From a virus (taxonomy: Duplodnaviria > Heunggongvirae > Uroviricota > Caudoviricetes): a stretch of DNA of 64,000 nucleotides. Made by a program: the position numbers and the translations under genes. This document shows, one piece after another, positions 1,662-35,984 of this stretch. Below the pieces are notes generated by a model. It searched no databases. It was not told the DNA's origin and saw nothing but the letters and a program-made list of their open reading frames with translations. How positions within the stretch are numbered: the first letter of the stretch is position 1; the number at the start of each line of letters is the position of its first letter. The DNA lies in IMG/VR virus record IMGVR_UViG_3300012983_000002; one strand, written 5' to 3'.

Positions 1662-2279
1662 TTAATTTGAAAGATCACTACCAGCAAGCTTAGTAGGATC
1701 TACTCCTATCATGTACAACTGTTTTGCCAGCTGAGCAGTATTCTCACTAATAACTCTCTCAAAGTAAGGTTCATCAAAAGCTTCATCAAGCTCATCCACA
1801 TCATCCGGAACCTCTTCCAGGTCTTCCGCTACGCTGGCTATCATATCTCCAACATAGCTCATTACGGACGGAGAGAACATCGATTGAAACTCCTCTGACT
1901 CCTTAGGCTCTCCGATAAGTAATGATACTTCTTGTACAGCCCAGAGCATATCACCTACATCAGGAGTCTCTAGAATACCTTCAGGAATATCTCCAATGTC
2001 ACCTTCCGCAAATGCCAGGGTGATAGCGTTGAACATGTTCACATTAGTAAAGAACAGATCTGTGGTCATAGCAGTAATAGCTGCATTAATTCTGTTCTCA
2101 GACTCCTCAGAAAGATGACAATCGAAATAATCCTCAATATCAGCAAACAGGATAGAGCTGTCTTCGGTGAATAAATCATCACCGAAGACAGGAAGAAGAA
2201 TTGTCATCAACACAAAAGCATAAGTATCGTCGCTTGCAAGAAGTTTAGCTGCTTCTGATTTTTTAAACGGATAGGCCAT
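1662..2279 (-). CDS. highly acidic hypothetical protein (205 aa)
   Basis: Complete ORF with strong D/E excess (EDLEEVPDDVDELDEAFDEPYFE). No recognisable catalytic motif. Confidence 0.5.
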   Translation of the reverse strand: MAYPFKKSEAAKLLASDDTYAFVLMTILLPVFGDDLFTEDSSILFADIEDYFDCHLSEESENRINAAITAMTTDLFFTNVNMFNAITLAFAEGDIGDIPEGILETPDVGDMLWAVQEVSLLIGEPKESEEFQSMFSPSVMSYVGDMIASVAEDLEEVPDDVDELDEAFDEPYFERVISENTAQLAKQLYMIGVDPTKLAGSDLSN

Positions 2280-2306
2280 AGTTGTATTATACAGAAATAC
2301 CCGGTA

Positions 2307-4259
2307 TTAGTTAAGGGCTCCCTTATCTCCTGGCTTGATGATATGGGCCATGATCCAGTCTCTGAACTCAGGTCTTCCCTCCTTCTCCAGCGCTTCCCAC
2401 TTCTTATACGAATCATAGTGAACCATTATTCCACTCGAAGGTTCGTATGTATACCTGTTCCCTGATCTACAGAACGTAAATCCTGTAACGAAGTTATTAT
2501 CATACGTCAGCTCCCTGATAGGCTGTGCTGCAGATATCTCTGGTGAGCACCACTTTGTATTCATAGGAATATACATACCAACCTCAGCTCCTGGAGAGTC
2601 GGTTACGATGGCTACGTCCATACCTTTGTATTTGCTGAAACTCTCACGAACTGTAGATAACATATCTCCTCCTGCAACACTCTCTAGGGTATCAAATACA
2701 CGTACATAGTACTCGGCAGCTCCAGGGCCGGCTGTAGCGGCAAATGCTCCGAAATTAGATTTACCTGTAGCGTGAGCTGATCCTTCGTAATTAAGAACAG
2801 AGAATACAGAGTTATTGCGTCCAGATAAGATAGACATAAATCTCCAATACTCGTATCTATTCAGTCCTAGTTTACTATGACTGAGTGTTCTCATAGGTAT
2901 AGCATCAGAGGCCTTACCTGATGTTGTATATACTGTATTGTTCGAAGCTAGTCTTATAATGTGATCTATCATCACTGCAGGGAATACTAATGTATTCTCA
3001 CATGCTCCTGTTTTATCATAGCGCACAATAGACCTGTCCTGGGACTCGTCTCGCATACACACAGCAACACCCATAGAAATACCACTTAACGTAGAGCATA
3101 TATCTGATGGAAGTCTATCGTGGTAAGACATTGTAGATGCTAGATACAACGGATCATAGAAGTCATCATCGTCCATCTTCAGGTAAAAATCATAACCTTC
3201 GGGTACTTCAATGAAATTAATCACCTGAGATCTATTAGGAAGAGATGTGACCTTATGATGTACTGAGGTCAGCTCCAGATCAGCTCTGGTTTTAATAATA
3301 TCGTATGTAATCTTGTCACATCCTCGTACAACTATATGTACAGCAAGTCTGGAAGTATCCTTTACGTAACGCAACTGATCCTTTAAAGAAATTATCTGGC
3401 TTAGAAGTTGCATAGGACGGTTATAGCTAGACAACTGTATGCAATACCTGTAACCGTCTACCTTCTTCTTATGACCTCCTGCACGTACAAAGGCGTTAAA
3501 TGACAGTGTGCGTACCTTTAGCTTACCTGTAGCGGCAGCATATTCGAGAGCAGTATCTACTGGCATCCTGGTAGTACGGAACAGCTCTGACACTTTTCTT
3601 CTGGAATCATTAGATACAAACATAGCGTAAGTACCATCACAATAAGGACTAAGTCTGGTTCTCTCCTTACCAGCAGGCAGCTCTTCACTGACATTATCAG
3701 GAAGCTCTGTTATACACTCCTTGTCGTAGTCAAGATCTTCCAATTTATATCTATCATATGTATGTGTGTGAAATAGTCTTATTACGTCTGTATCCGGGTA
3801 TTCTGTGACTACTTTCTTAATAGCCCTATATAACAGCTTAGCGTCTACCATAGGTACAGCCCTACGCTCACATACGATATTGCCTTTTAAATCATTCTTG
3901 CAGATATGCATAATATCAAGAGCAAGCATCCAAGACATACGCAGGGAACGGATCTTTTCTTTTAATCCGTAAGCCTCTCCGTAATGCAGTTCTTCCGGTA
4001 TATAATTACCACCATCGTCAGAGTCATTAAGTAAAGACGCATCTGACCTCTCTGTGTATGGTATAGTAGGTACTAGTATAGGTTCGTACTGCAGCTGCTT
4101 ATACATGAACACCTGCTCCAGACGTTCTCCTTCGCTTACTAATATAGTTACAGGAAGCCTAGGTTCCTTGGCTTTCTTCTGTACTTCTACAAAACTATCT
4201 AATGTATTGAGGTATTCTTTCGCTGTATATAAGTTTGGCATGTAGTAATAATACCACAT
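2307..4259 (-). CDS. hypothetical protein (650 aa), possible virion/morphogenesis protein
   Basis: Long uninterrupted ORF tightly packed with neighbours. No diagnostic motif recognised. Confidence 0.55.
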   Translation of the reverse strand: MWYYYYMPNLYTAKEYLNTLDSFVEVQKKAKEPRLPVTILVSEGERLEQVFMYKQLQYEPILVPTIPYTERSDASLLNDSDDGGNYIPEELHYGEAYGLKEKIRSLRMSWMLALDIMHICKNDLKGNIVCERRAVPMVDAKLLYRAIKKVVTEYPDTDVIRLFHTHTYDRYKLEDLDYDKECITELPDNVSEELPAGKERTRLSPYCDGTYAMFVSNDSRRKVSELFRTTRMPVDTALEYAAATGKLKVRTLSFNAFVRAGGHKKKVDGYRYCIQLSSYNRPMQLLSQIISLKDQLRYVKDTSRLAVHIVVRGCDKITYDIIKTRADLELTSVHHKVTSLPNRSQVINFIEVPEGYDFYLKMDDDDFYDPLYLASTMSYHDRLPSDICSTLSGISMGVAVCMRDESQDRSIVRYDKTGACENTLVFPAVMIDHIIRLASNNTVYTTSGKASDAIPMRTLSHSKLGLNRYEYWRFMSILSGRNNSVFSVLNYEGSAHATGKSNFGAFAATAGPGAAEYYVRVFDTLESVAGGDMLSTVRESFSKYKGMDVAIVTDSPGAEVGMYIPMNTKWCSPEISAAQPIRELTYDNNFVTGFTFCRSGNRYTYEPSSGIMVHYDSYKKWEALEKEGRPEFRDWIMAHIIKPGDKGALN

Positions 4260-4299
4260 ACCATTAACTTTTCTACAACTATGACAAAGAAATCATAGT

Positions 4300-5649
4300 T
4301 TATGGGAGGTGACTAGATCTATTAAATATATCGTGGTTATAGTTTGCATACAGCTGTCTGAGCATTTCCTTCTCAACATCACCGGCGCCTACCAGATTAT
4401 CTATACGTGCCATACCATCCGCATTAGCATTAAGATTCCATCTTGCTAATCTACTAGCATCCACAGATCCACCTGGGCCTCCTTTCAGCATACGGTATCC
4501 GTCCGCTAAGGCTTCCTGCATGAGTTTAGGATTGTCCCATGGAATATTAAGACCATTTTTCACACCAACATTCCTTAAACGTTGTGCAAGATCTCCGACT
4601 ACAGCAGCATGCTCTTCTGGAGTCATTTTGTGAAGCGCTGCATGAGAACTCTCATGAGCATTCATATGTGCGTAACCTTTAGTCTTAGGACTGACCATAG
4701 TGACACCAGCTCCAGGAAGATAGCCAGCCTGACCTCCTCGTTCTATTAAATCTACGTAGGCGTCATCCCTTCCAATTACCTTATTAACGAGTCCTCTGAG
4801 CCTAGGATTATTACTAGAACGCAAGCGAGTATACAAAGCATTGGCCCTGGTACCTGGTTCTAATATGTTTTGCCCGTCCAATCTGGATAATGTTGTCTTT
4901 ATAGAGCGTGGCGTTTTTTCGAGTAAACCTTGGGAGTCTATATAAGTAAACGCATCTCCAGGTGCATGCTGTATGTCGTTTGCTGCAACTCTGGTAATCT
5001 TATTGTTCCTGGCAGCTCTCCATGTTCCTCCGTTATCGTATGGGAGAGATCTCATAGCTCCAACCATACGACGCATATAATCCATGCTAGGTAGCTGCTC
5101 GTCTTTTTTACCACCGCGCATGGCTTTAGCTGCAGAAGCTGATCCCGGGTTAGTTGGTCGACTAGGGAATAAGTTAAAATAGTAGTCGTGAACAAGATCT
5201 CCCTCGTTCAAAGGGGTATTCGTAGCACGGTGCATTGCTATAAGATCATCCCTGCTTACGACGTTGTGAGAATCTGTAGCTCTAGCAGGGAAAAGAGATC
5301 TTTTAACATCTCTCCAGTGCGCGCCGTCAAGCTGATAGCTACTGCGCAAATCCTTAGCGTCAGTCGTACCTTTAAGCCAGTTACTGTTCTGGTATCTCCC
5401 TTTAGATCTTATCGTAGGAGCATCTCCAAATACAGATTTAAGTCTGGGCTGTATCAGCGTGGCGTAACCATCCTCATACGCGATGCCTCTCTTTTTCGAG
5501 GCGATATTATCTATCTCACTACGAATGCGATCGTACCTGGCATTTCCGAGTTTCTTTCGTGCGAGATTTTCTGGCAAGGACGCTACAATATAACGCATCC
5601 TTGCAGCCGATACAGCTTGTTTAGTAATACCTACATCACTATCTCTCAT
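4300..5649 (-). CDS. hypothetical protein (449 aa)
   Basis: Long ORF in the same orientation as its neighbours. No motif recognised. Confidence 0.55.
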   Translation of the reverse strand: MRDSDVGITKQAVSAARMRYIVASLPENLARKKLGNARYDRIRSEIDNIASKKRGIAYEDGYATLIQPRLKSVFGDAPTIRSKGRYQNSNWLKGTTDAKDLRSSYQLDGAHWRDVKRSLFPARATDSHNVVSRDDLIAMHRATNTPLNEGDLVHDYYFNLFPSRPTNPGSASAAKAMRGGKKDEQLPSMDYMRRMVGAMRSLPYDNGGTWRAARNNKITRVAANDIQHAPGDAFTYIDSQGLLEKTPRSIKTTLSRLDGQNILEPGTRANALYTRLRSSNNPRLRGLVNKVIGRDDAYVDLIERGGQAGYLPGAGVTMVSPKTKGYAHMNAHESSHAALHKMTPEEHAAVVGDLAQRLRNVGVKNGLNIPWDNPKLMQEALADGYRMLKGGPGGSVDASRLARWNLNANADGMARIDNLVGAGDVEKEMLRQLYANYNHDIFNRSSHLP

Positions 5650-5934: not shown

Positions 5935-6543
5935 TTATGCGTGATGAGAGTTGATATAATCTTCCAGAGCAATATTTACTTCTTCCTCAGTCTTCGCTGC
6001 ATCGATAGCAGCCCAACATACCTGCTTTCCTTGCTGTAAGGCAGTCTCGTGAGCTGCCAAATCTGCGTAAATTTTCTGAATATCCTCAGTAGATAGAGGA
6101 GCTACCGTCTGACCGTCGGCAAATTCATAATAAGTCAAGCCTCCCATCAACAGACCAGCAAGAAGATAAATATTATCCTTCTCAGTGTGCATCACAGCAT
6201 ATCCTTCCCTATAGCTAGGAACATCTACTCTGTGTGTATGCTTGCGAACGTAATCGAGATGTGCCTGTGCTTTATCCTTAGCGGCCTGGCGACACTCCGA
6301 TGTTACATAACCGTAATACGCCTCCGGATCTGCCAGAATAGCATCTTTATCGAGCACGTCTGTCTTCTCCCAGAAAATATACTGGTCGCCTTCCCAACTC
6401 TTGCGAGGAGTTTCTTCTTCGCCAGATGGCTCTTCCTGGTGCTCGGTAACGTTAATAGTAATAGTAACCTGAGTACTACCATTAAAATCGTAGAATACTA
6501 CAGGTGCCGGCTCTTCTGAAAAATTAGCGTGCTGCTTGCGCAT
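5935..6543 (-). CDS. hypothetical protein (202 aa), immediately downstream of the DGR RT with a 20-bp overlap
   Basis: ORF overlaps the RT stop, suggesting translational coupling. Its acidic N-terminus makes it unlikely to be Avd. Confidence 0.5.
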   Translation of the reverse strand: MRKQHANFSEEPAPVVFYDFNGSTQVTITINVTEHQEEPSGEEETPRKSWEGDQYIFWEKTDVLDKDAILADPEAYYGYVTSECRQAAKDKAQAHLDYVRKHTHRVDVPSYREGYAVMHTEKDNIYLLAGLLMGGLTYYEFADGQTVAPLSTEDIQKIYADLAAHETALQQGKQVCWAAIDAAKTEEEVNIALEDYINSHHA

Positions 6544-7669
6544 AATGAGAAATAATGTTTGATGCTCTACTGAACGATTTTATAGCATTAAGAGCTCTTT
6601 GTACATACCTTGTCGCAGCCGAATCCATGTATCCTTTATACGACATAAGTCTAAGGGACTGTCTTAACGACATAACGCCTCCCTTAACTTTAATAAGTAG
6701 CTTTCTTGCCTTTCTGAATATATGCTTGCGCAGCGTAACCAATCCTCCTGGAGATACTCGGAAACCCATCATGTCTACTGGGTGTCGTTTAGTAATTCTA
6801 TGAATCTGCCACGAAGGTTTTATCATTAGGTGTAATACAGAGGCCGCTCTCTTGGTAATAGCTTTTATCGCTTTGCACAGACTCCTTTTATTTGTACCTA
6901 TAAATAGCATGTCGTCCATGTAGAACAGAGTACGCTTTACCTGGTTATTACGCTTACAGGATCTCTTAGTAACACACTCCTCCTTTGCGAAGTGATAAAG
7001 ATCAGACAAATATATGTTAGCTAACGTCTGGCTAAGAAAACTACCGATAGCCATGCCCCTTGGTACAGAATACACTAGCTCACGTATAAGCCACATTAAG
7101 CGATCATTGCATATTCTTTTCTCCAACCAAGCCATCATGCAATCCCTATCCACAGAACCATAAAAGTCCTTGATATCTAATTTAGTAGCGTATAGCTTAT
7201 GATCCGAACTCAGCCACTTCTTTATAAACTTGATACCATAATGAGCACCGCGTCCTTTGATACTACTGACTTGAGTTACACCTATGCGCTTACATACCTC
7301 ATCAAGAGCCAGAACAGCTATATGATCAAACATAAGCTGTCTTATACCTAATACAGATATCTTTCTAGACTTGCCGCTTCCTGGATCTATTCTTATTACT
7401 TGCTTGGGTGTGGGTAGGCCTAAATCCTCACCAGACAATAAAGTATCCTGTAGATCCTTGGCTATAGAAAAACAAGCATCAAAGTACTGCTCGCCTCTAT
7501 GCTTAAGAATGCGAGCTACTTCTTTTCGCGAACAATTTGGTAGATATTTCTTAAACAGATGTACCGTATCGTGTCGCCGCCTTTTTCTGCTAGGCGCAAA
7601 ACACTGAAGCACTGCTCTGAGAATAAGGTCCCCATCGCAAATATCTACATTCTTACACTTACGTTTCAT
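6524..7669 (-). CDS. reverse transcriptase, diversity-generating retroelement type
   Basis: Catalytic motif FYMDDMLFIG (YxDD). The upstream motif GMAIGSFLSQTLANIYL carries the IGxxxSQ signature typical of DGR RTs rather than the QGxxxSP of group II intron RTs. It is adjacent to the TR and two VR-bearing genes. Confidence 0.85.
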   Translation of the reverse strand: MKRKCKNVDICDGDLILRAVLQCFAPSRKRRRHDTVHLFKKYLPNCSRKEVARILKHRGEQYFDACFSIAKDLQDTLLSGEDLGLPTPKQVIRIDPGSGKSRKISVLGIRQLMFDHIAVLALDEVCKRIGVTQVSSIKGRGAHYGIKFIKKWLSSDHKLYATKLDIKDFYGSVDRDCMMAWLEKRICNDRLMWLIRELVYSVPRGMAIGSFLSQTLANIYLSDLYHFAKEECVTKRSCKRNNQVKRTLFYMDDMLFIGTNKRSLCKAIKAITKRAASVLHLMIKPSWQIHRITKRHPVDMMGFRVSPGGLVTLRKHIFRKARKLLIKVKGGVMSLRQSLRLMSYKGYMDSAATRYVQRALNAIKSFSRASNIISHYAQAAR

Positions 7670-7860
7670 TCGTTAGTGATTTTGACCTTCAGAGCTTTTC
7701 GCCTGAGCTACTAACCTCTGTGTCCATTGGTCATTTGTATTTTGACTCCGTTCGGAGGGAGGCTGTGACTTTTAATGTTACAGGCGGAAAGAATAAATCT
7801 TTCCCGCGATATGACTCCATAAATTACAGGACAAGTCCTGCAAAACTATTTGCAAAATTG
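7670..7860 (-). ncRNA. DGR spacer RNA region between TR and RT start, with predicted hairpins
   Basis: Non-coding 190 bp between the TR and the RT ATG. It contains short stems (ctccgttcggag; caggacaagtcctg). By analogy with the Bordetella DGR, the TR-adjacent RNA primes cDNA synthesis. Confidence 0.45.
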
Positions 7861-7959
7861 CGGGCGCAGATGTTCCAGTTCGCGTTCCCAAGACCGTTGT
7901 TGAGGTTCAAGTAAGCAGATCCAGCGTTCGTACCGTTGTTCAGGTTACCGCCAGAAAGG
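7861..7959 (-). repeat. DGR template repeat (TR), about 99 bp
   Basis: About 99 bp homologous to the 3' ends of ORFs 8079..10292 and 10403..12640. Every mismatch falls on a plus-strand T (template-strand A). The TR read in the target frame contains about 10 AAC codons. Confidence 0.85.
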
Positions 7960-8026
7960 AACAATCGCTTCGAAATCATATCCCTAAAATTTTCTATATC
8001 CTATTAGTAACTACAAGTGGATCCTC

Positions 8027-8085
8027 TCGAGGGGTAGGAGCTCTGCCCCTCCCCCTCGAACTCCCCCACCCCGATGGACTAATCA
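8027..8085 (-). promoter_or_regulatory. IMH-like GC-rich element plus hairpin downstream of VR2
   Basis: This 59-bp flank is identical to 10351..10409. The minus-strand reading gtgattagtccatcggggtgggggagttcgagggggaggggcagagctcctacccctcgag contains a 9-bp stem ctcgagggg/cccctcgag. It is absent at the TR flank. Confidence 0.6.
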
Positions 8086-10292
8086 CGGGCGCAGAAGTAC
8101 CAGTACGCGCTCCCAAGACCGCCGTTGAGGTGCAAGGAAGCAGATCCAGCGTGCGGACCGTTGACCAGGGAACCGCCAGAAAGGAACTCCTTAGCCTCAT
8201 TAGTACTCACGTAGAACTTATCACCATGTCCCTCCTGATCAGACGAGCTACCTACCAGTACAGGATAAGCGACACCATTCCAGGAGATAGTCTCGTTATA
8301 GATGAATTTATCTGAAACAGTACCATCCACTACTCCAGAAGGCACATATCCAGCCGTTATCCATGGGGACAATGTATTAGATGTACTGCTCAGTCTAGCT
8401 TTACCATCAGGACATGTAAGGATTACCATCTGACTTGTTGCTGGAGTGATAGAGACTCCATCAATAGTAAGAGCAGTAGATCCATCTCCCTTTACAGCTA
8501 CAGTATCTCCTGCGCAAATGTAACCGCCAGGCATGTACTCTGTACCTTGTACGCGATATGGATGTTTTTGATTTGTAAGAGATGTTACAGACCCGTCGTG
8601 CATTCCAAGTACTCCTGTTCCGCTTACACCACCATTCATCGTCTCTCCACCAAGAGAGAATCCTTGACACGCATATGCACAATACTGAACATCACTACCC
8701 AGGGCGTCCTGATCTGCCTTAGTAGTAACAACAACGAAAGGTTTGACAGGGAATGCTGTATTGTTGGCAGGATCAATTCGCAAGCACAGCTGTCCTGAAT
8801 CACTCTTGATCTCTGCAGTAGGATCAGTCAGATCATACTTAGCAATTTCCGCAATACGCACATACTGTGTAGCATTAGTAGTCGTATATCCGAATGCCAT
8901 AGCATTTCCGATAAGTGCAGCGCTGCCAGCAGAATTATAGCCATTCAAGCAGACTGTACATCCCACCTCGAATGCTCCCTGACTGGAGATAGGGAACAGA
9001 TAACTAGGGGTAGTAATAGCCGCAGCAGCCTTCACAGCGTTTTGGTTATTCTGCGACATACCAGTATGGATCTGCTGTGAGTTCTTATTAGCATTCTTAA
9101 CAATATCAAACAGCATACCGAATGCATTCACGCATGCCTTACCTGGATTAGCAGCGGCCTGATTTCCGAATGCGATAATGTTGTTATAGCTAAGGTTGTT
9201 TCTGAGAGGAGCGTTGAGCTTAGATACCAGACCCTGCGTACTTGTCGAATCATAACCTCCACAGAAGGCAGAATGACACCAATAAGGACGAAGTACAAAT
9301 GAATTGGTAGAAGCATCCCACACCTGACAGGAAGGCCACACATGGAAGTCTTCCTCTGTAAGACCGTGAGCCTCTAATTCGGCGATAGTATCAGCATCCA
9401 GTCCCTCGTATGTAATACCATCAGATACGACAGTACTCCAGGGGGAGTCTGAGATTACCCAGAGCTGTGAGATAGGGGATCCGTTCTCTGTTCCGTCTGC
9501 AGTCAGCCATGTACCGTCTGCTTGCTGGAACTTCTCCGTCTTTACAGCAAACCAGAAGATAGGACCGAATGCAGCAATGTTCTGAGTCTGATCGAATGCT
9601 GGGATATTAAACGTACCAGAAGGTGTAGCAACAGTACCTCCTGTTACACCTCGAATAGCTGTAATGTGCTTTACACCGTACTCGTCCTTAATGTAGTTTC
9701 CGTACTGCCAGTAGAACACCCATTCCTTACCAACATAATCATCTACGCCAAGCGCAGTATCGGTAGAGCAGGCGTGATTAAGATTTTCATTAGCCCACAG
9801 CTTAGCTGTCATATTATTGGCAAAGAAATTACCAGCAGCTGAAATAGTAGGCGCTACATTAGCTACAGCTCCGCTCGCATCCTTGTAAGCGTACGGTACA
9901 CGAGAACCATATACACGTCTAGGAGCTGCTGCCAGAGGGTAATTAGGCTGAGCTACTGCCTTATAATATTCATTGAAATAATTAACTGGGATAGCTGTAC
10001 TAGGAACGGCTGTAGTAGGATAGGTCGGAGCGTCTGCTGCCACATCAGCAAAAATCTGAGCAATCTGATTAAATTTTTCATGCTCAGCTGCTGTAAGATG
10101 TACGGTAGTATTCTGCTCGTGTTCCTGCAGTGAGGTACTCTGATCACCGATGGCCTTAATAACATCAGCCCCGTTTACAGACAGCCGTCCGGCCACTGTT
10201 GCGTCTCCTGTTACAGAGATATTCTTAACAGAGAGTACTGTAGTGTTTACAGTATCTGCTGTCACAACTCCTCGAGAAATTTTTACACTCAT
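8079..10292 (-). CDS. DGR target protein 2 (737 aa), putative receptor-binding/tail fibre protein with a C-terminal variable domain
   Basis: Paralogue of 10403..12640, with shared motifs YWCHSA, LFDI(V/I)K(N/T)ANKN, RVQGTEYM and a C-terminal ...CARD. The VR occupies the last ~35 codons, and a C-type-lectin-like variable region is expected. Confidence 0.8.
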   Translation of the reverse strand: MSVKISRGVVTADTVNTTVLSVKNISVTGDATVAGRLSVNGADVIKAIGDQSTSLQEHEQNTTVHLTAAEHEKFNQIAQIFADVAADAPTYPTTAVPSTAIPVNYFNEYYKAVAQPNYPLAAAPRRVYGSRVPYAYKDASGAVANVAPTISAAGNFFANNMTAKLWANENLNHACSTDTALGVDDYVGKEWVFYWQYGNYIKDEYGVKHITAIRGVTGGTVATPSGTFNIPAFDQTQNIAAFGPIFWFAVKTEKFQQADGTWLTADGTENGSPISQLWVISDSPWSTVVSDGITYEGLDADTIAELEAHGLTEEDFHVWPSCQVWDASTNSFVLRPYWCHSAFCGGYDSTSTQGLVSKLNAPLRNNLSYNNIIAFGNQAAANPGKACVNAFGMLFDIVKNANKNSQQIHTGMSQNNQNAVKAAAAITTPSYLFPISSQGAFEVGCTVCLNGYNSAGSAALIGNAMAFGYTTTNATQYVRIAEIAKYDLTDPTAEIKSDSGQLCLRIDPANNTAFPVKPFVVVTTKADQDALGSDVQYCAYACQGFSLGGETMNGGVSGTGVLGMHDGSVTSLTNQKHPYRVQGTEYMPGGYICAGDTVAVKGDGSTALTIDGVSITPATSQMVILTCPDGKARLSSTSNTLSPWITAGYVPSGVVDGTVSDKFIYNETISWNGVAYPVLVGSSSDQEGHGDKFYVSTNEAKEFLSGGSLVNGPHAGSASLHLNGGLGSAYWYFCARD
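8086..8184 (-). repeat. DGR variable repeat VR2 (3' end of target gene 2)
   Basis: 14 mismatches versus the TR, all at TR adenines. Confidence 0.85.
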
Positions 10293-10350
10293 GATATGTA
10301 TTTCGTTATATTTTGCGTTAATAAATTTGTCAATATAAGATTAGAGGCCC

Positions 10351-10409
10351 TCGAGGGGTAGGAGCTCTGCCCCTCCCCCTCGAACTCCCCCACCCCGATG
10401 GACTAATCA
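10351..10409 (-). promoter_or_regulatory. IMH-like GC-rich element plus hairpin downstream of VR1
   Basis: Identical to 8027..8085. Confidence 0.6.
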
Positions 10410-12640
10410 CGGGCGCAGATGCGCCAGGACGCGTACCCAAGACCGCCGTTGAGGCCCAAGCAAGCAGATCCAGCGTACGTACCGAAGTTCAGGCTACCGC
10501 CAGAAAGGTATTCATACACTCCCTTATTATTACTGCGATAGTAATAATCACCGAAACTATTACTAGAACTGGCACCCTGGCCTATGCTGAGTGTTACGAA
10601 TCCACCAGACTCTGACAGTGTTCCTTGGGCAACATAACCCTCAGTTATAGGACACATGGTCTGCACCTTATATCCAGCATTAATCCAATTAGACACAGTG
10701 CCAGCTCCATTATTAATACGTTTAACATGAGCAGGACAATTAAGGATCATGTAACGTTCTACTCCAGGCTCATTAGTATAGTATTCTCCATTAATCTCTA
10801 TGGGTGTTGTACCGTCATCTCTTATAGCAATCATGTCGGACGATACAGTCCAGGCTCCAACCATATATTCTGTTCCCTGTACTCTGAACGGATGTCTACC
10901 ATTAGTGAGATTAGTACATGCTCCGTCTGTTTTTCCAAGTACAGCATCAGTCTCCCCAGATAGTGCAAATCCCTGTTGAACATAACAGCATGCCCTTACT
11001 CCGGCAGCTTGTAACTCAGCACACGCCTCTTCGGTAGTTCTTACGAGGAATGGTTCAACTGTACCCGGATCTAATACGATACACGGAGCTGTTACTGTAC
11101 CGGCATCTACCGTATCGAACGTACGTAATTCCACAGCACTTATTCTCCCTATCTGTGTCTTTGCTGATCTGCCATTAGATACTCTTAAGATACCTCTATA
11201 CTTAGCCTTAGTAGAATCAACATACATAACACTCTCCAGGTATACTGTGCAGTGTTTCTCGAATTGCTTCTTGGCCTGATCTGCTGTGCCTATCGGGACT
11301 ATATAATCGGCAGAAGCAGTGTTATATGTAGGTACAGCCTTGTATGTTAAATTATCTGTAACGTTCTGATCGTTACTGTAGTTATTGCTCATACCAGTGT
11401 GATAGGCCTGTGTATTCTTATTAGCAGTCTTAATAATATCAAACAGAATCGGGAATCCTGTAATACATGCTGCAGTTCCTCCTCGATTAATAGAAGGGTA
11501 TACTCCACCTACAGCAGCACCATATGCAGCATTAAGGTGATTGTAGGAAAGATTGCTTCTACGAAGAGGAAGATTAGGTTTAGACACAATAGGTCCTGTT
11601 CCTGCCTCATTCTCGGCTCCTGCAAAATAAGCAGAATGGCACCAATACGGGCGTTCTATATACGTGTCGAGGGTAGAGTCATAAACAAGACACTCGGGCC
11701 ATATACGTAAATCTGAGGCCGTTATACCGTGAGAATAAAGTTCCAGGCGTTTCTCATCACTCAACTTATCCCACGGAGAATCAGATATACCCCATAGCTG
11801 AGTAATTGGTTGTCCTGTTTCTGTACCGTCATCTGTAGTCCATCTCTGAACTCCATTAGAGTCAGTGAACTTGTATAGCTCTGTTTTAACGAAGTACCAG
11901 AACTTAGGTCCGAAAGCACATACATTCTTATCTCTACTGAATACTCTACCCGTCTTAGGAAGATCTTTAACAGCAGTAATATGCTTATTACCGTCCTCGT
12001 CAGTAATGTAATTAGCATGTCCCCACCAGAACGCCCATTGCTTTCCTACGTAATCATCTACTCCAGGATTGGTATCTGTAGCGTATGTATGATTGAGGCC
12101 GGCATTATCCATCAGCTTGGCTTCCAGCTTAGCCTTATCAAACTTGGCTATTGGTGTATTAGCTGGAATGCTTGCTATGGAAGACATCAGATAAGTGGAG
12201 TCGAAATTAGCAGCTCCATCTACTTTCTGAGGATAAGGAACTCTGGATATGTAAACCTTACCTGGAGCCTCGTATACTCCCTTCTCTGCTCGATTAGCGA
12301 AGAAGTCATTAAAGAATTGCCAGGAATAAGAACCTGCTGGTAGACGAGGAGGTACAGTGGCTGTAGGAGTAAGCTTACCTGTATTATCAAAAGAGAACCG
12401 GGAAGTTATATTGTTAAAGCTTGTTCTCTCTTGACCAGTGAGATGAACTACTGAATCTGACTTGTGTGACTTCGTACCATCAGCCAATTCTTCGATATGT
12501 TCTCCTACCTTATATTCACCGTCGGTAGGTGTTCCTATGATTAGTTCTCCTTTTACACCCATATTACCTTCTAAGTCCAACGAAGGTCGAGTAAGAGAGT
12601 CTGATAGAATAATTGTTTCTGCATTTAGATCTGCTGCCAT
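10403..12640 (-). CDS. DGR target protein 1 (745 aa), putative receptor-binding/tail fibre protein
   Basis: Paralogue of 8079..10292 with a diverged N-terminus. It ends ...GGLGYASWRICARD, with the VR at its 3' end. Confidence 0.8.
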   Translation of the reverse strand: MAADLNAETIILSDSLTRPSLDLEGNMGVKGELIIGTPTDGEYKVGEHIEELADGTKSHKSDSVVHLTGQERTSFNNITSRFSFDNTGKLTPTATVPPRLPAGSYSWQFFNDFFANRAEKGVYEAPGKVYISRVPYPQKVDGAANFDSTYLMSSIASIPANTPIAKFDKAKLEAKLMDNAGLNHTYATDTNPGVDDYVGKQWAFWWGHANYITDEDGNKHITAVKDLPKTGRVFSRDKNVCAFGPKFWYFVKTELYKFTDSNGVQRWTTDDGTETGQPITQLWGISDSPWDKLSDEKRLELYSHGITASDLRIWPECLVYDSTLDTYIERPYWCHSAYFAGAENEAGTGPIVSKPNLPLRRSNLSYNHLNAAYGAAVGGVYPSINRGGTAACITGFPILFDIIKTANKNTQAYHTGMSNNYSNDQNVTDNLTYKAVPTYNTASADYIVPIGTADQAKKQFEKHCTVYLESVMYVDSTKAKYRGILRVSNGRSAKTQIGRISAVELRTFDTVDAGTVTAPCIVLDPGTVEPFLVRTTEEACAELQAAGVRACCYVQQGFALSGETDAVLGKTDGACTNLTNGRHPFRVQGTEYMVGAWTVSSDMIAIRDDGTTPIEINGEYYTNEPGVERYMILNCPAHVKRINNGAGTVSNWINAGYKVQTMCPITEGYVAQGTLSESGGFVTLSIGQGASSSNSFGDYYYRSNNKGVYEYLSGGSLNFGTYAGSACLGLNGGLGYASWRICARD
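10410..10508 (-). repeat. DGR variable repeat VR1 (3' end of target gene 1)
   Basis: 14 mismatches versus the TR, all at TR adenines, plus one boundary mismatch. Confidence 0.85.
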
Positions 12641-12762
12641 ATTTTCTATTATAGTTAATTATCTCTACGAGGATAGCACGGAGATGTGGTAGATAAAAGA
12701 AAGACACCCTCTCCTGTACTTGACGGAGAGGGTGTGTAGATTATATTGATGAAGATTAGTAA

Positions 12763-13272
12763 TTATCCGTAGATGAAATCAGGGCCTGTTGTTGCCGAGT
12801 TGTAGAACGGCTTTTTACTCACGGTGTCGAACATACAGGGCTTGCCATTCGGGTCTAGGCATGGAACGAAATTGTGAACCACCTCGGTGCCTTGCGATAT
12901 AGATACTTCATAAATGCGGCATCCTCCATTATTGGCCATCGCACCCGAATTATTAAATGCAAATAAATATGCACTATAGCCGATTGATTGTGGTATATCA
13001 CCCAGAGTCGCTGATATTATGTTTCTGTCACTTTGGGCTACAAATATAACCGATCTGCTATTCAGCCAGTTTAGCTCACTTCTGTATACGGAACCCCACT
13101 CACCTTCTGAAAGTGGGAACTTAAACCAGTCATCCCAGCCGTAGCCTATATCCAAAAGTGTCGGATTCGGCGGATAATACCTCGGCCTACATGCCATCCA
13201 CCTTAAATCCAACTCGACGTTTTTCGCAGCGCAAACATCATAATCAGCGGATGTTGTTGCTTGGGCAACCAC
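12763..13272 (-). CDS. hypothetical protein (169 aa), fibre-associated?
   Basis: ORF directly upstream (minus sense) of the DGR targets. Confidence 0.45.
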   Translation of the reverse strand: MVAQATTSADYDVCAAKNVELDLRWMACRPRYYPPNPTLLDIGYGWDDWFKFPLSEGEWGSVYRSELNWLNSRSVIFVAQSDRNIISATLGDIPQSIGYSAYLFAFNNSGAMANNGGCRIYEVSISQGTEVVHNFVPCLDPNGKPCMFDTVSKKPFYNSATTGPDFIYG

Positions 13273-13395
13273 GTATGTGCCGCTTTCGTTGTCGGGTACA
13301 AAGTGCGTGTCAATATACTGCGTACTGTGCTCTGCAGATACTTCACCCGTTTGTACCCGACAGGCAGCACCTCCCCAGCACCCATCGGGCTTATT

Positions 13396-14073
13396 TTACA
13401 CGGAATACTCATATGCTTTGGTAATTACCGTTGTTCCGTTACCTTCATTACGCACTGCAAAACGATAACGCTTATTTGCCGGCAAAATAAAAGAAGGAGC
13501 AGCCCCATTGGGTTCATCTGGCCATACGACTCCTTCGGGCCAGGTTACAGAGTACCCTGTATCTCCAGTCTCCATCCAGATCTCACAGGTCTGCACATAA
13601 CCAGGAGCTGACTTGAATGCGATAGCAGAGAGATCCTGATTACTATTAATTACTCCGAGATCATACACACGACCTGATACCATCTCAGAAGGAATAACAG
13701 CAGGAAGATAAATCTGGGCCTCTCGAAGAAACTCATCAGAAGTTGACACTTCTCCAGATACAGTAACATCACCTTCAACGACCTGATCGCCGGTAAATGT
13801 ATTTCCTCCCTCCAATAATGCTACGCCGGTCAGATCGATAGGACCGCCTGATCCTCCAGACCCACCTGTACCTCCAGAACCACCAGCTCCTACACCGGTT
13901 ACTTCGACAATAATAGCATTATTATCAGACACAAGTACTTCCTCATCAGGAGCAATAAATGTGGTCTGAACATTTGCAGGAATAGTGGCGAGAGTTGTAC
14001 CGTCAGCGGAGATTGTACAACCACTGATACTGTTTACAGAATAGGTTTTACCTGGAGAAGTTAAGAAAATCAT
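13396..14073 (-). CDS. glycine-rich fibre-like protein
   Basis: Collagen-like G-rich tract GVGAGGSGGTGGSGGSGGP, located in a tail-fibre-like module. Confidence 0.5.
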   Translation of the reverse strand: MIFLTSPGKTYSVNSISGCTISADGTTLATIPANVQTTFIAPDEEVLVSDNNAIIVEVTGVGAGGSGGTGGSGGSGGPIDLTGVALLEGGNTFTGDQVVEGDVTVSGEVSTSDEFLREAQIYLPAVIPSEMVSGRVYDLGVINSNQDLSAIAFKSAPGYVQTCEIWMETGDTGYSVTWPEGVVWPDEPNGAAPSFILPANKRYRFAVRNEGNGTTVITKAYEYSV

Positions 14074-14077
14074 AGTA

Positions 14078-14296
14078 TTAATTATAGATTATATTGTTGC
14101 CTATAGTGTTATTATAGTTTCTGATTTCCTGGATTACAGCATCTGGGTCTGTTATATCCAGTTGCTGTCTCGGCGCTACTATTTTAACGGAGCCACCGAT
14201 CGGAATCTCAGCAATAAGCTTGTTGTCCTTAGTATACACAAGTCCTCCCGCTACACTAGCGATTATATACACTTTACCTACAACAAAGTCACGCAT
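14078..14296 (-). CDS. small hypothetical protein
   Basis: 72-aa ORF tightly spaced with its neighbours. Confidence 0.35.
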   Translation of the reverse strand: MRDFVVGKVYIIASVAGGLVYTKDNKLIAEIPIGGSVKIVAPRQQLDITDPDAVIQEIRNYNNTIGNNIIYN

Positions 14297-14404
14297 TTTC
14301 TATCTCTTCTATTGGTGTTTCCTCTTCTGTCGGAGGTTCGGTTTCTACCCATTCGCAAATAAGCTGAGTATCGGTCTCACGCCACTCAGGTACCCAATAA
14401 CCAA

Positions 14405-14914
14405 TCATAGCATAGAGGTGTTGCTATTGGGTATATACCCCGTGTCAACATACTGTGTCCCCGTAGACTCCAGATACTCCAACCTCGTATAAGTAATAGG
14501 TATTTCGTCAATTTCTGTCACCACATTGCTCGGCAACACACGCTCCAGCAAGCTATTCACCTCTTCAATCTGCTCGATAGTAACTTCAGGAGAAAACTGC
14601 AGGTATAACTTATTCTCAGCCGGGATATAATTAATATCAAAATTGGCCTCCCCGACAATAGAGACAAGACCTGATAGAACATCACTAAGCCAGGATGGAA
14701 CTGGTCTGCTACCTACTGCAGTGTTTGTACCCCATCGTACTTCGACAAACTTTGCAGCGTCGTCCCCATCGATAACAATCTTTTTATCTAGAGCAAGAAT
14801 AATAGATTGCCCTCCTGCAGGGATATCTATTGCCATAGCTCCGTTAATGGCCGTACAACCAATTTCACTTGATACGGCGTACATACGTCCTCGACTTGTG
14901 TCTCTTACTTTCAT
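14405..14914 (-). CDS. hypothetical structural protein
   Basis: 169-aa ORF. A 39-aa ORF follows in another frame at 14297..14404. Confidence 0.45.
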   Translation of the reverse strand: MKVRDTSRGRMYAVSSEIGCTAINGAMAIDIPAGGQSIILALDKKIVIDGDDAAKFVEVRWGTNTAVGSRPVPSWLSDVLSGLVSIVGEANFDINYIPAENKLYLQFSPEVTIEQIEEVNSLLERVLPSNVVTEIDEIPITYTRLEYLESTGTQYVDTGYIPNSNTSML

Positions 14915-14954
14915 TAATTCTAATTCTATGCGTTCAGTGGTCCGAGGACTAGTA

Positions 14955-15518
14955 TTAAAATGCGCTAATACCCTGAATATACTTATTTGCTGCGTTGCTA
15001 ATCCGTGCCCCCATCCTATTTAACCGTCCTGTATAGTCAGGCTTTGGTGCAGCGAAGATAGAAGAAACAATCCTACGCTCGCTAGGAGCAGTCCTATGCA
15101 ACGCGGCACCTATAAAATCTCCACCAGGTACAAGGGATTGAAACAACTGATAGGCTGACTTTCTACCGTAATCAAAAGCATTTTTGGGATTCGCAGGATT
15201 GATGTAAGCTTGGAACTTGTTGGCAGCTGAGGCGCGTCCAGCTCCTATTTTTCTAGCAATACCTCTTACAAAATTAGACCTTGAAGGGTCGCTGGATATT
15301 CTACGGGCCTGCCCTGCTATAATTCGTGATGCGTAAGGTCCTGTTAGTTTCTCCGCAGCGTCAAGCCCGTCGAACAGACCCATTTTCATCCCTTTTCCTA
15401 CGTTAGCAATTCTCTGAAACGTATTCCGATACTCCATACCGCGCCAACCGTGACGTGCACCCATCGCGCTTCCTAAAACTCCTAAAACAGCTGATAAATT
15501 AAATGAACGTTTTTCCAT
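14955..15518 (-). CDS. hypothetical protein
   Basis: 187-aa ORF. Confidence 0.5.
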   Translation of the reverse strand: MEKRSFNLSAVLGVLGSAMGARHGWRGMEYRNTFQRIANVGKGMKMGLFDGLDAAEKLTGPYASRIIAGQARRISSDPSRSNFVRGIARKIGAGRASAANKFQAYINPANPKNAFDYGRKSAYQLFQSLVPGGDFIGAALHRTAPSERRIVSSIFAAPKPDYTGRLNRMGARISNAANKYIQGISAF

Positions 15519-16188: not shown

Positions 16189-17304
16189 TTATTTATCAGC
16201 GAACACAGCGCCAGCCGCCTTCATAACACCCTGAATAATCTCAGAGCCTACCAATGTACTGGGCAGCTTCAGATCCCTGATGTTCTCTACAAACTTCAGA
16301 CGAACATAGTTATCACCTACAGATTCACTATAGGCCCTAACAGCCGCAGCTTCTGCCTTCTTACCTTCAGCTCGAGCCTTAGCAAGCATCAGCTCACCTT
16401 CAGCTGCCTTCTGAGCCAGGTACAACTCGGCATCTGCCTTACGCTGCGCCTGATACAGTTCAGCATCTGCCTTAGACTGCGCAGCAAGACGTTCGCCTTC
16501 TGCGACCTGCTGAGCGCGACGAGCTTCGGCACGACCTTCTGCTTCTCGAATCTCTTCATTCTTACGAGCGATTGACAGATCGATATCGCGCTTCTCGTCA
16601 GTCTGAGTTGCCTCTACCTTAGCCACGATACCAGCCACAACTTCCTTGGGAGGAGTAGTGCGACCGATATTAATAGACCTCAAAACGAACGGAGTACCGG
16701 CAAGTTCCTTCTGCATGGACTTCTCTACCTGAGCAGTGATCTCAGGAATATGGAGAGCTGCATCAAGCCCGCGATACTGACTTACGGCAGTACGCACAGC
16801 AGTCTGGAACGGCTTCTGCACAAAGGATTCGTAGGCGTCCTTGATCAACGACTCCGGAGACGCATCGACCTCAGCCATAGCACCATAGTTCTCCACGAAC
16901 TCCCTAATCTTGTTACGATCGATTACGAACACAATAGAAGCCTCGGCTGATGTCATCAGATTATCCTTGGACTGGATATTATCAAATGACTCAGCCATAC
17001 GCCACGGAGTAGTAGATACAATACAGGCCTTCTTACGCCAGGTAATACCCGTTGAGTTGGGACCTGTAAGTACGCCTACAAATTCCTTCTTACCAAAGAT
17101 AGGATCACTGTATACGTAGGCAGCATAGCCACCATCTACCTTCACATTGTCCAGGTTACACGACAGGAATATTGTAGTAAGGAGTAAGATTACACCCGTT
17201 ACAACACCTGCAATTATCTTCTTCATAGCTGCCGCTTCCTTAGCTTCTTCAATTTCACGAGCCTTGCGCTGCTCTTCCAAAATAGCTTGATAATTAGTTG
17301 CCAT
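16189..17304 (-). CDS. SPFH/band-7 (prohibitin/HflK-like) membrane protein
   Basis: N-terminal TM segment, followed by an SPFH-like core and a long Ala/Glu/Arg coiled-coil tail (AEARRAQQVAEGERLAAQSKADAELYQAQRKADAELY). Confidence 0.65.
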   Translation of the reverse strand: MATNYQAILEEQRKAREIEEAKEAAAMKKIIAGVVTGVILLLTTIFLSCNLDNVKVDGGYAAYVYSDPIFGKKEFVGVLTGPNSTGITWRKKACIVSTTPWRMAESFDNIQSKDNLMTSAEASIVFVIDRNKIREFVENYGAMAEVDASPESLIKDAYESFVQKPFQTAVRTAVSQYRGLDAALHIPEITAQVEKSMQKELAGTPFVLRSINIGRTTPPKEVVAGIVAKVEATQTDEKRDIDLSIARKNEEIREAEGRAEARRAQQVAEGERLAAQSKADAELYQAQRKADAELYLAQKAAEGELMLAKARAEGKKAEAAAVRAYSESVGDNYVRLKFVENIRDLKLPSTLVGSEIIQGVMKAAGAVFADK

Positions 17305-17547: not shown

Positions 17548-18030
17548 TTACTTAACCTCTACAATGTATCTTATTGTTGCTTTACTGCTTATTAATTTCT
17601 TGATGCGTTCCACCTCCCACCTACGATAATCTTCTTCCAGCTTACGCAACACTTCAGCATGAGACCTAGGTCTAATATGTATCTCCTGCATGTCTGCTAA
17701 ATCATCGAACACTGCATTTCGCGTCATGTCTGATATAATATTGTGCGAAGCGAGAGAGGAGACGATAGAGTTGATTCTATCATCACGCGACATACACTCA
17801 GCCGTGCTAGCGGCAGAATGTCCGACAGCATTTTGTGCTATGGCTTCTAACGTGTTACACACACTGTCAGCGGCCATCACGTAAGCCGAATTATTACGTA
17901 TGCGAGGGAATGTTGGGCTCTGGGCGAAACGCTCATCTAAAAAATTACTAGTATTAAATCTATCTAATATGGGATTACTGCAAACAATATTGCGAAGATC
18001 CCTATCGTATTCGGCGTAGTCAAAGGGCAT
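17548..18030 (-). CDS. hypothetical protein
   Basis: 160-aa ORF. Confidence 0.5.
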   Translation of the reverse strand: MPFDYAEYDRDLRNIVCSNPILDRFNTSNFLDERFAQSPTFPRIRNNSAYVMAADSVCNTLEAIAQNAVGHSAASTAECMSRDDRINSIVSSLASHNIISDMTRNAVFDDLADMQEIHIRPRSHAEVLRKLEEDYRRWEVERIKKLISSKATIRYIVEVK

Positions 18031-18545
18031 TATTCATCTACTGTGCTTATTACATAGTCATCGTACTGTGGAATCTGAATAGGACGATAATCCTGACGCT
18101 CTACAGATACACACCAGGAATTCTCTGTCCTTGTTACAAAGTTATCATTTCCATGCACATGACCATATATGTTGAAATACGGGGCTTTGAATCTCTTGTA
18201 CAGAGGCGCATGACTGAGGATAAAGAAATCCTTAAGAATCACAGGGTATCTGGATACAAATGTACACCCACACTCCCTGTAAAAGTCATCACTCCTTGTA
18301 TCATGATTCCCTTTGATGAGACGTATATGACCATTAAGCCTGGAGAAGATATGCTTGATGTATTCCTTCTTTGTGCTGAGGGTTACGTCTCCCAATAACC
18401 ACACTATATCGTGTTTGGTTACGGTATTATTCCAATTAGTTATGAGAGCTTCATCCATCTCCTCTACAGAAGCGAACGGACGATTCTCATACTCGATTAC
18501 TGCTTTGTGTCCGAAGTGCGGATCTGCTATAAAGAATGTTCTCAT
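18030..18545 (-). CDS. calcineurin-like metallophosphoesterase
   Basis: Motifs FIADPHFGH, LLGDV and GNHD in canonical order. Confidence 0.75.
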   Translation of the reverse strand: MRTFFIADPHFGHKAVIEYENRPFASVEEMDEALITNWNNTVTKHDIVWLLGDVTLSTKKEYIKHIFSRLNGHIRLIKGNHDTRSDDFYRECGCTFVSRYPVILKDFFILSHAPLYKRFKAPYFNIYGHVHGNDNFVTRTENSWCVSVERQDYRPIQIPQYDDYVISTVDE

Positions 18546-34849: not shown

Positions 34850-34920
34850 TACCCTCGGACGGTAACGATCCGCCTCTCTCAGTGTGTAAAACTGATTTGC
34901 TACCTTTACAACACAAGGGC
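34850..34920 (-). tRNA. candidate tRNA-Val(TAC) with a non-canonical T-loop
   Basis: Hand-folded cloverleaf: acceptor GCCCTTG/CGAGGGT, anticodon stem TCAGT/ACTGA with loop TTTACAC, but T-loop ATCGTTA instead of TTCGAAT. Intergenic. Needs tRNAscan confirmation. Confidence 0.4.
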
Positions 34921-34995
34921 TACTCTTACCCAAGTTGCCATCGGTTCAGGATTGGTTACCTGATTGTATAGTTACCGACGGACTTGGATCATTAA

Positions 34996-35070: not shown

Positions 35071-35121
35071 ATTGCTAATTAAGAATATAATAAGCTTTGG
35101 GTGTAGAGTCAACAATAAAAA

Positions 35122-35361: not shown

Positions 35362-35362
35362 G

Positions 35363-35956: not shown

Positions 35957-35984
35957 AAATAGCGACCTGTTATGGTCGCTAGAA

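Follow-up and report, generated by a model that had tools for sequence, protein, structure and literature searches.

A diversity-generating retroelement with one template repeat and two paralogous, predicted lectin-fold targets in a large gut phage

The targets of diversity-generating retroelements (DGRs) of phages have been described mainly as receptor-binding proteins (PMC10743442, PMC12386605), and Mtd of the Bordetella phage BPP-1 (PDB 1YU0) is the prototype DGR tail-fibre tip. TaqVP (PDB 5VF4), a DGR variable protein encoded by a Thermus aquaticus prophage, is a monomer of 381 aa with a single domain (PMC6328139), and a TaqVP-like receptor-binding protein is carried by crAssE-Sib (OR575929), an epsilon crAss-like phage (PMC11054128). 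Diversifying lectin-fold proteins with a DGR is the standard means by which gut phages adjust host recognition, and the kind of system analyzed here is thus well established; the protein family is new. The window, i.e. the whole stretch of 64,000 nucleotides of viral DNA that was analyzed, comes from a large (~140-196 kb) gut phage of a poorly described group whose genes are almost all unannotatable.

Anatomy of the retroelement and its targets

By its anatomy the locus is a DGR, in which a single reverse transcriptase (RT) and a single template repeat (TR) serve two variable repeats (VRs; Table 1). The RT matched RVT_1 in Pfam (1.4e-10) and phrog_1423, 'reverse transcriptase', in PHROGs (8.2e-55), and the motifs IGSFLSQ (GxxxSQ) and YMDD, read directly from its translation, identify it as a DGR-type RT; exact copies of the protein are present on 16 public contigs. 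The TR does not vary among the 10 related contigs in which it is present. Each VR lies at the 3' end of its target gene and is followed by a near-identical G/C-rich flank of ~57 nt, absent after the TR in the alignment, with a candidate IMH-type element and a hairpin (dG -19.3 kcal/mol, z -3.4, DNA fold). The accessory variability determinant (Avd) is common but not universal in DGRs, and it is also missing from most zeta crAss-like ones. No Avd gene was found here, the interval between target 1 and the RT holding no ORF besides the TR itself, and RVT_1 and DUF4376 were the only families matched among the flanking ORFs scanned against Pfam and NCBIfam.

Table 1. Features of the retroelement and its surroundings, in positions of the window
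Feature	Coordinates	Strand	Basis
202-aa protein, C-terminal DUF4376; candidate tail-fibre assembly chaperone (Tfa-like)	5935..6543	-	PF14301
DGR RT, 381 aa	6524..7669	-	RVT_1 and phrog_1423 matches; IGSFLSQ, YMDD
TR, non-coding	~7858..7961	-	reads FLSGGNLNNGTNAGSAYLNLNNGLGNANWNICARN in VR frame; 10 AAC codons
VR1 3' flank: G/C-rich element and hairpin with 14-bp stem; candidate IMH and target-site hairpin	8026..8082	-	alignment, DNA fold
Target 1, 737 aa	8079..10292	-	ORF; VR1 at its end
VR1, last ~34 codons of target 1	8083..8186	-	TR match
VR2 3' flank, matches VR1 flank	10350..10406	-	alignment
Target 2, 745 aa, paralogue of target 1	10403..12640	-	ORF; BLASTP
VR2, last ~34 codons of target 2	10407..10510	-	TR match
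Upstream neighbour, disrupted by 1-nt deletion near 13322	12763..13412	-	orthologue comparison
Upstream neighbour, 225 aa, short Gly-rich linker, not collagen-like	13396..14073	-	ORF, orthologue
Upstream neighbour, 72 aa	14078..14296	-	ORF
Upstream neighbour, 169 aa, truncated just after LEYLESTGTQ	14405..14914	-	L001 orthologue, 435 aa

The original prediction held that the two targets are paralogues with a conserved core, and this was confirmed by BLASTP, which aligned them from residue 9/10 to the end with 37% identity (E 4e-135), and by the presence in both of KHITA, RPYWCHSA, NLSYN, HTGMS and RVQGTEYM, which contain all the motifs named beforehand (HITA, YWCHSA, NLSYN, HTGMS, RVQGTEYM). 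Both proteins end in CARD and their last ~34 codons match the TR, in agreement with the placement of the VR in the last ~33 codons. Their N-termini had been called different. They are indeed divergent (18-25% identity over residues 1-125), and also homologous, alignable and of the same length, and thus not unrelated; this homology gives no ground for the further proposal that the two proteins are differently anchored. Many His, Asp, Cys and Trp residues are invariant in the central region, and the gene order of the target orthologues is kept in three relatives (L001, L002, L003). Searches of the targets against Pfam, NCBIfam and PDB sequences gave no match, and neither did megablast of positions 6000..15000 against GenBank phages. 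Among PHROGs, phrog_17147 matched the C-terminal ~180 residues of both targets and phrog_5302, 'tail protein', the C-terminus of target 2.

Adenine-specific variation at both VRs

Mutagenesis at both VRs is adenine-specific. In the 101-nt core compared, of which 24 positions are A in the TR, all 14 mismatches of VR1 fall on TR adenines, as do 14 of the 15 mismatches of VR2, the lone exception lying at its 5' edge; the chance of 15 out of 15 substitutions falling on A is ~4e-12. The arrangement of one TR with two VRs recurs in L002, a relative with targets just 42-46% identical to those of the window, where 20/20 and 19/20 mismatches lie at adenines. The VR pattern LSGGxLxxGxxAGSAxLxLxxxLGxxxWxxxARD is common to 64 homologues and hypervariable at the AAC positions.

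The retroelement is active: over 10-12 kb, contigs obtained from other samples match the window everywhere except in VR1 or in VR2. One of them (L005) shows six differences in 12,279 nt, all inside VR2 and two of them T-to-G changes that are not at adenines, and two others (L006, L009) differ over 10.4 kb in VR1 only, by 12 adenine-site changes and one 3-nt deletion. Certain VR alleles were assembled independently more than once (one is common to L009 and L012, another to L005 and L015). Judging from these sequences, turnover is ongoing at both VRs while the TR stays constant, and the idea that the phage has two independently adaptable specificities is borne out to the extent that the two tips diversify independently in natural populations.

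Predicted fold and genomic surroundings of the targets

The AF2 model of the target (pLDDT 88.6, pTM 0.85) is compact and globular, not fibre-like, with the first ~95-120 residues helical and of low confidence. In target 1, such an N-terminus (~1-95) is followed by a domain without a fold match (~95-340) and by a C-type-lectin (CLec) region (~340-737) that is modelled as TaqVP-like and FGE-type, with inserts. TaqVP was the best Foldseek match of the model (probability 0.99), and the central domain (residues ~95-350) gave no match to known structures, enzymes included. Model and match agree in predicting an FGE-type CLec fold for the C-terminal domain, as had been anticipated for this region; a non-CLec fold or a clear enzyme would have spoken against that view, and the searches returned a CLec fold and no enzyme family. 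The targets did not fit the Mtd-type trimeric tail-fibre tips.

The upstream ORFs had been taken for Gly-rich, collagen-like fibre proteins, a description that had to be dropped. Only one of them (the 225-aa ORF) has a Gly-rich tract, of 19 residues (GVGAGGSGGTGGSGGSGGP), in place of which its 79% identical L001 orthologue has GIGADLTVAEAGSGGP; Pfam, PHROGs and NCBIfam returned no collagen or tail-fibre match for the ORF, tblastn found nothing among 50,697 phage records, and the extended conserved Gly-X-Y region of a collagen-like protein is missing. The intact orthologue of the disrupted neighbour has 216 aa and the motif LPxGYxRVEYLESSGTQYIDT. Neither the upstream neighbours nor their longer orthologues in L001-L003 had informative Pfam or PHROG matches, two of the neighbours gave no tblastn match against phages, and none within 8079..14914 carries a recognisable tail or fibre signature. 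Judged by eye, the N-terminal ~60 aa of the 72-aa ORF look like a module that recurs in its two neighbours.

On the other side of the cassette, the protein encoded after the RT scored 23.6 bits against PF14301 (E 7.6e-5), 1.4 bits under the cut-off of 25, and the DUF4376 match was found in all four of its orthologues (best E 8.7e-6). DUF4376 has been described as a fibre chaperone domain (PMC7882524, PMC10579305), and the gene lies directly after the cassette in every relative examined (L002, L003, L017, L019), even without an RT. A 688-aa collagen-motif protein with NGFRGTEEEWLESLKGPQGDTGPQGIQGPAGE and many tail-fibre PHROG matches is encoded just outside the window, past its start and ~5.5 kb beyond the RT. 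A profile of the N-termini of the targets compared with all local ORFs gave marginal values only, for this protein (E 0.0037) and for a small upstream ORF family (0.03), and was not relied on. The only sequence-level relative of the targets in the GenBank phage collection is the DGR target of MT835469.1, a 176-kb phage from human faeces, which is 28% identical to the window target over residues 338-737; phrog_17147 covers it entirely (8.7e-81) and its N-terminus contains tail-fibre PHROG motifs. In that genome the target follows a fibre-like protein of 2349 aa and a structural protein of the virion, and precedes an endolysin.

Among 20 larger ORFs of the window, no capsid, portal, terminase or tail genes were recognised with PHROG and Pfam. 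The corresponding locus of relatives is interspersed with genes for methyltransferases, a resolvase with TnpB, an acetyltransferase and RNA polymerase subunits, and is therefore not a clean structural module. For the location in a tail-fibre module and the receptor-binding role that had been proposed, indirect support comes from the DUF4376 gene, the 688-aa protein and the context of MT835469.1, all of them outside 8079..14914, and the unrecognisable upstream neighbours, with no fibre signature inside that interval, and these non-structural genes speak against them. The downstream 792-aa protein has no relatives in IMG/VR. In a GTDB scan, one 8-kb contig turned up in an Akkermansia-binned MAG, too weak a basis for assigning a host.

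Possible role of the targets and comparison with known systems

Taken together, these data reflect an active DGR whose targets are most likely two virion-borne receptor-binding proteins; attachment to the virion, trimerisation, receptor binding and the chaperone role of the DUF4376 protein are all inferred. The TR would be transcribed and copied into cDNA by the adjacent RT, with misincorporation opposite template adenines, and the cDNA would replace either VR, guided by the G/C-rich element and hairpin that follow both. Each VR would encode the C-terminal strands of the TaqVP-like, FGE-type CLec domain, in which the ten AAC codons plus ACG, TAC and ATC could yield ~4e13 variants per protein. 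The two targets, each composed of a short helical N-terminus, a family-specific domain and the lectin region, probably arose by a duplication that predates the divergence of the phage group, and their ligand-binding faces would be re-randomised independently, with the help of the Tfa-like DUF4376 chaperone.

Within a real and active DGR, the targets could instead act away from the virion, as secreted or cell-surface adhesins during infection or as intracellular binders of variable host factors, e.g. defence proteins. The lack of a recognisable structural gene among the window ORFs scanned, the methyltransferase, resolvase/TnpB, acetyltransferase and RNA polymerase genes around the cassette in relatives, the globular model and the stretch without a known fold (residues 95-350) would fit such a role, as would the fact that TaqVP, the closest structure, is monomeric, single-domain and without known ligand (PMC6328139). 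We nevertheless consider it unlikely, given that the Tfa-like gene keeps its place directly behind the cassette, also in the absence of an RT, that a collagen-motif fibre protein is encoded nearby, that the CLec region is homologous to the MT835469.1 target, with its tail-fibre N-terminal motifs and its place in a structural-lysis block, and that receptor binding is the function mainly described for phage DGR targets.

It is far less probable that the targets use the FGE-like fold catalytically, the VR tuning substrate specificity: the would-be active-site positions are the randomised ones, searches of Pfam, NCBIfam, PHROGs and PDB sequences yielded no enzyme family, the protein that matches best by a wide margin is a variable protein of a DGR and not an enzyme, and comparison of the conserved central domain with known structures did not return any enzyme. 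An enzyme might be suggested by the numerous His, Asp, Cys and Trp residues that do not vary in the central region, and Handa et al. regard enzymatic activity in such folds as not formally excludable. We give still less credit to a decaying cassette, in which the adenine pattern would be a trace of earlier activity and contigs would differ in their VRs through assembly noise in a repeat. RT and TR have been lost in some relatives (L003), many assemblies break at the TR or a VR, and there is the missing Avd; against this, the RT is encoded by an intact ORF and has its catalytic motifs, the TR is the same in 10 contigs, differences between samples fall almost only on adenine sites of VRs within 10-12 kb that are otherwise identical, and the same alleles appear in independent assemblies (L009/L012, L005/L015).

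Returning to the virion-borne receptor-binding proteins, the pair would offer, if this role is correct, a useful model for keeping two adaptable specificities. Going further, it is conceivable, at somewhat less than even chances, that the targets represent a receptor-binding architecture of a new type, with a short helical anchor, then a lineage-specific domain and a TaqVP-like lectin, which was duplicated early in undescribed large gut phages with pieces of a multisubunit-type RNA polymerase. One template would then keep two host-recognition specificities under independent, ongoing hypermutation, and this would be a two-channel tropism system of natural origin, in which changes in both channels have been seen in gut samples of humans or animals. 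In any case, the locus adds a clean natural record of one template feeding two paralogous targets independently, a rare domain, confidently modelled and without a solved structural relative, fused to a lectin, and a marker cassette for the poorly described 140-196 kb gut phages.

With respect to known systems, the window targets differ from TaqVP in ~340 additional N-terminal residues, including the domain without a solved structural relative, and their aligned sequence identity to it is ~15%. Kinship to crAssE-Sib, considered because of its TaqVP-like receptor-binding protein, was rejected at the sequence level, where neither the BLASTP E values (target 0.033, RT 0.021) nor the hhalign probability (0.2) are significant, in a comparison that covered, among crAss-like phages, crAssE-Sib only. 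In the DGRs of epsilon and zeta crAss-like phages, each TR serves a single target, or there are several TR-VR pairs (PMC11054128, PMC12386605), whereas in the window two targets share one TR, and its phage group, set against crAss-like phages, encodes multisubunit-type RNA polymerase pieces (Rpb2_6, Rpb1_5). In MT835469.1 a single target was found, with the RT nearby and an RNase H gene between the two, and the N-terminus with tail-fibre motifs takes the place of both the N-terminus and the central domain of the window family. The tentaclin DGRs nd4 and nd12 (PMC10743442) resemble the window locus in having one TR and two CLec-domain targets in gut phages. Their targets, however, differ in topology, one having the VR close to its 5' end and the other at its 3' end, and belong to small myoviruses (PMC10743442), while those of the window are full-length paralogues of the same architecture in a phage of ~140-196 kb.

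Cassette organisation and repeats

The original prediction of a DGR with two paralogous targets proved essentially right: all but one of the mismatches between template and variable repeats fall at adenines, and the targets are 37% identical over their full length (E 4e-135). Every gene of the region is carried on the minus strand. No Avd gene was found at the cassette, either by ORF inspection or in Pfam and NCBIfam scans of the flanking ORFs.

Features of the DGR locus and genes upstream of it
Feature	Coordinates	Strand	Matches and motifs
Non-structural genes upstream of the cassette: Band_7/SPFH-like protein, metallophosphoesterase, endonuclease, endolysin	16189..17304, 18030..18545, 20687..21460, 24734..25627	-	
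Small ORF, first in 5'->3' order	14405..14914	-	
Small ORF, second	14078..14296	-	
Small ORF, third	13396..14073	-	
Small ORF, fourth, frameshifted	12763..13412	-	
Target 2, 745 aa, 3' of small ORFs	10403..12640	-	
Target 1, 737 aa, 3' of target 2	8079..10292	-	
Template repeat (TR), inside 410-nt spacer between target 1 and RT	~7858..7961	-	
Reverse transcriptase (RT), 381 aa	6524..7669	-	RVT_1 1.4e-10; phrog_1423 8.2e-55; IGSFLSQ and YMDD present
202-aa ORF, overlaps RT gene	5935..6543	-	DUF4376 at C-terminus

The TR and the variable repeats of targets 1 and 2 (VR1 and VR2) are in gapless register in a three-way alignment. Within the 101 nt of the core, VR1 has 14 substitutions relative to the TR, every one at a template adenine, and VR2 has 15, with 14 at adenines and the exception at the 5' edge; since the TR holds 24 A in 101 nt, the chance of 15/15 substitutions falling on A is ~4e-12. 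In the VR frame the TR translates as FLSGGNLNNGTNAGSAYLNLNNGLGNANWNICARN, in which ten AAC codons, together with ACG, TAC and ATC, by calculation allow ~15^10 x 64, roughly 4e13, possible proteins per target. The scaffold LSGGxLxxGxxAGSAxLxLxxxLGxxxWxxxARD is kept across 64 homologues, and the AAC positions show high entropy. The ~57 nt 3' of each target stop codon are near-identical between the targets and missing on the TR side, and a G/C-rich run and a hairpin (14-bp stem, dG -19.3 kcal/mol, z -3.4) in the 3' flank of both VRs lie where an IMH and target-site hairpin would be expected, and are candidates for these elements. In the relative L002, one TR and two VRs were again present, with adenine-site mismatches of 20/20 and 19/20 and a 3' flank common to both VRs; another relative, L003, lacks both RT and TR, and its VRs have drifted apart.

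Activity on both targets

Near-identical contigs from other samples, retrieved by exact-protein look-ups, demonstrate that the DGR acts on both targets. Contig L005 (ERZ27246298) shows 6 mismatches with the window over 12,279 nt, all in VR2, while over 10,419 nt the differences of L006/L009 (ERZ27246363) are confined to VR1 (a 3-nt deletion plus changes at 12 adenine sites). The TR was identical in 10 of the 10 contigs holding it, and VR alleles recur across independent assemblies (L009 = L012; L005 = L015). Several assemblies end at the TR, as expected of a heterogeneous repeat, and breaks at the TR/VR repeat would fit a mixture of VR haplotypes within a sample. Contigs L010, L013 and L014 begin 45-75 nt before the TR, one such broken assembly being 196.5 kb long.

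Two of the six differences in L005 VR2 (window 10407..10510) are T-to-G changes at template thymines, off adenines. The VR1 allele of L009 and L012 (window 8083..8186) has the 3-nt deletion in frame at the VR 5' end (LSGG-LNYG...), so that retrohoming or recombination there can alter VR length.

Paralogy and fold of the targets

Identity between the targets is 42-48% in residues 126-420, 24% in residues 421-548 and 71% in the VR. All the common motifs listed in the original prediction occur in both; the N-termini, described there as different, are divergent yet homologous, identity in residues 1-125 being 18-25%. The pair is kept in the same order in the related contigs L001 (94% and 92% identity), L002 (46% and 42%), L003 (42% and 49%) and L017; the duplication is therefore older than the divergence of these phages.

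The AlphaFold2 model of target 1 (66 sequences; pLDDT 88.6, pTM 0.85) was weak only in residues 1-~120. Foldseek against the PDB returned a single significant family, that of TaqVP (5VF4; E 7.6e-4, probability 0.99), the Thermus aquaticus prophage DGR variable protein, which confirms the anticipated CLec fold, with TaqVP rather than Mtd as nearest structure. TaqVP, a monomer made of one FGE-type CLec domain, has three inserts and carries the VR at its C-terminus (PMC6328139). The sole GenBank phage homologue, from MT835469.1 (a 176-kb phage from human faeces), aligns to residues 338-737, and the lectin region therefore begins near residue 340.

Probable receptor-binding role, genomic context and known systems

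The assignment of the targets to a tail-fibre module, as receptor-binding proteins, is weak within 8079..14914 and finds supporting context outside it. The four upstream small ORFs and their longer orthologues matched no Pfam, PHROG or NCBIfam family, and tblastn with two of the ORFs gave no GenBank phage match. The proposed Gly-rich collagen-like fibre ORFs were not borne out: the Gly-rich tract of the third small ORF spans 19 residues, and a 79%-identical orthologue has non-Gly sequence in its place, so the collagen-like reading was rejected in favour of a linker. Downstream, the 202-aa protein matches DUF4376 at 23.6 bits (cut-off 25), three of three orthologues tested match it at their C-termini (best E 8.7e-6), and the gene comes after the cassette in all relatives examined, RT-less L003 included. 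Tail-fibre assembly chaperones, among them Mu U/Tfa, Alteromonas phage V22 gp27 and a Campylobacter CJIE1 protein, have DUF4376 as their conserved C-terminal domain (PMC7882524, PMC10579305). The product of an L005 gene ~5.5 kb past the RT, immediately outside the window, is 688 aa long, carries the classic fibre motif NGFRGTEEEWLESLKGPQGDTGPQGIQGPAGE and has many tail-fibre PHROG matches. The match of phrog_17147 to the MT835469.1 target runs over its whole length (8.7e-81), and the N-terminus of this target carries tail-fibre PHROG motifs; its gene follows those of a fibre-like protein of 2349 aa and of a virion structural protein, and precedes that of an endolysin. Two observations count against a fibre role: none of the window ORFs scanned was recognisable as a capsid, portal, terminase or tail gene, and the locus in relatives contains or adjoins genes for methyltransferases, a resolvase with TnpB, an acetyltransferase and beta and beta' pieces of RNA polymerase. 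With this evidence on both sides, a receptor-binding role is likely but unproven, and indirect evidence makes the tail-fibre reading plausible.

The fourth small ORF has a 1-nt deletion near 13322 with respect to its L001 orthologue (216 aa), within the conserved motif LPxGYxRVEYLESSGTQYIDT, which splits the gene into two frames. An assembly error is unlikely, because no gene was called across the matching stretch of L008, a near-identical contig from another sample; the ORF is probably a genuine pseudogene, with a programmed frameshift as a possible alternative. The first small ORF (169 aa) ends right after the motif LEYLESTGTQ, its L001 orthologue reaching 435 aa, so both carriers of the motif domain are disrupted in this strain. 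By eye, the three consecutive ORFs of 13396..14914 (169, 72 and 225 aa) have a common N-terminal module of ~60 residues (G.Y...S..G......IP.GG......D.DA...EV) and differing C-termini, resembling a cassette of interchangeable proteins.

Three minus-strand ORFs in 1662..5649, downstream of the DUF4376 gene, encode proteins of 449 aa (with a HESSH zinc-protease-like motif), 650 aa and 205 aa. The L002 and L003 loci lack counterparts of these ORFs, and an RNA polymerase gene follows the DUF4376 gene much sooner there; the stretch appears to be an insertion specific to this strain. Split multisubunit-type RNA polymerase pieces (Pfam Rpb2_6, Rpb1_5) were found in L005 (15288..17210), L002 (15336..17585) and L003 (13531..16995), the last with Hint and LAGLIDADG intein domains. 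The target locus seems to be a hot spot for insertions: the two paralogues are separated or flanked by a resolvase and a TnpB-like gene in L002 (8317..9967) and by DNA methyltransferases in L017 (3231..3845 and 7359..8312). Elsewhere, the window encodes on its minus strand a six-gene tRNA cluster (Val, Met, Glu, Asp, Gly, Asn; 34850..37098) and a GroEL-type chaperonin (44527..46149; phrog_5725, 3.5e-171); of the other large ORFs scanned, almost none matched a Pfam or PHROG family. A target-RT-DUF4376-like cassette, 45% identical, is present on an 8-kb contig (L019, JAFZGH010000284.1) binned in an Akkermansia sp. MAG from water-buffalo rectum; this hints only weakly, and perhaps spuriously, at Akkermansia as host.

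Among crAss-like phages, TaqVP-like CLec DGR targets have been reported from the epsilon (crAssE-Sib) and zeta groups (PMC11054128, PMC12386605). No sequence homology was detected between the window proteins and the crAssE-Sib RBP and RT. Phage DGRs with two targets have also been reported, in the tentaclin paper (PMC10743442); unlike those, the two targets described here are full-length paralogues. The protein family and the phage group are new, and the kind of system is well known.
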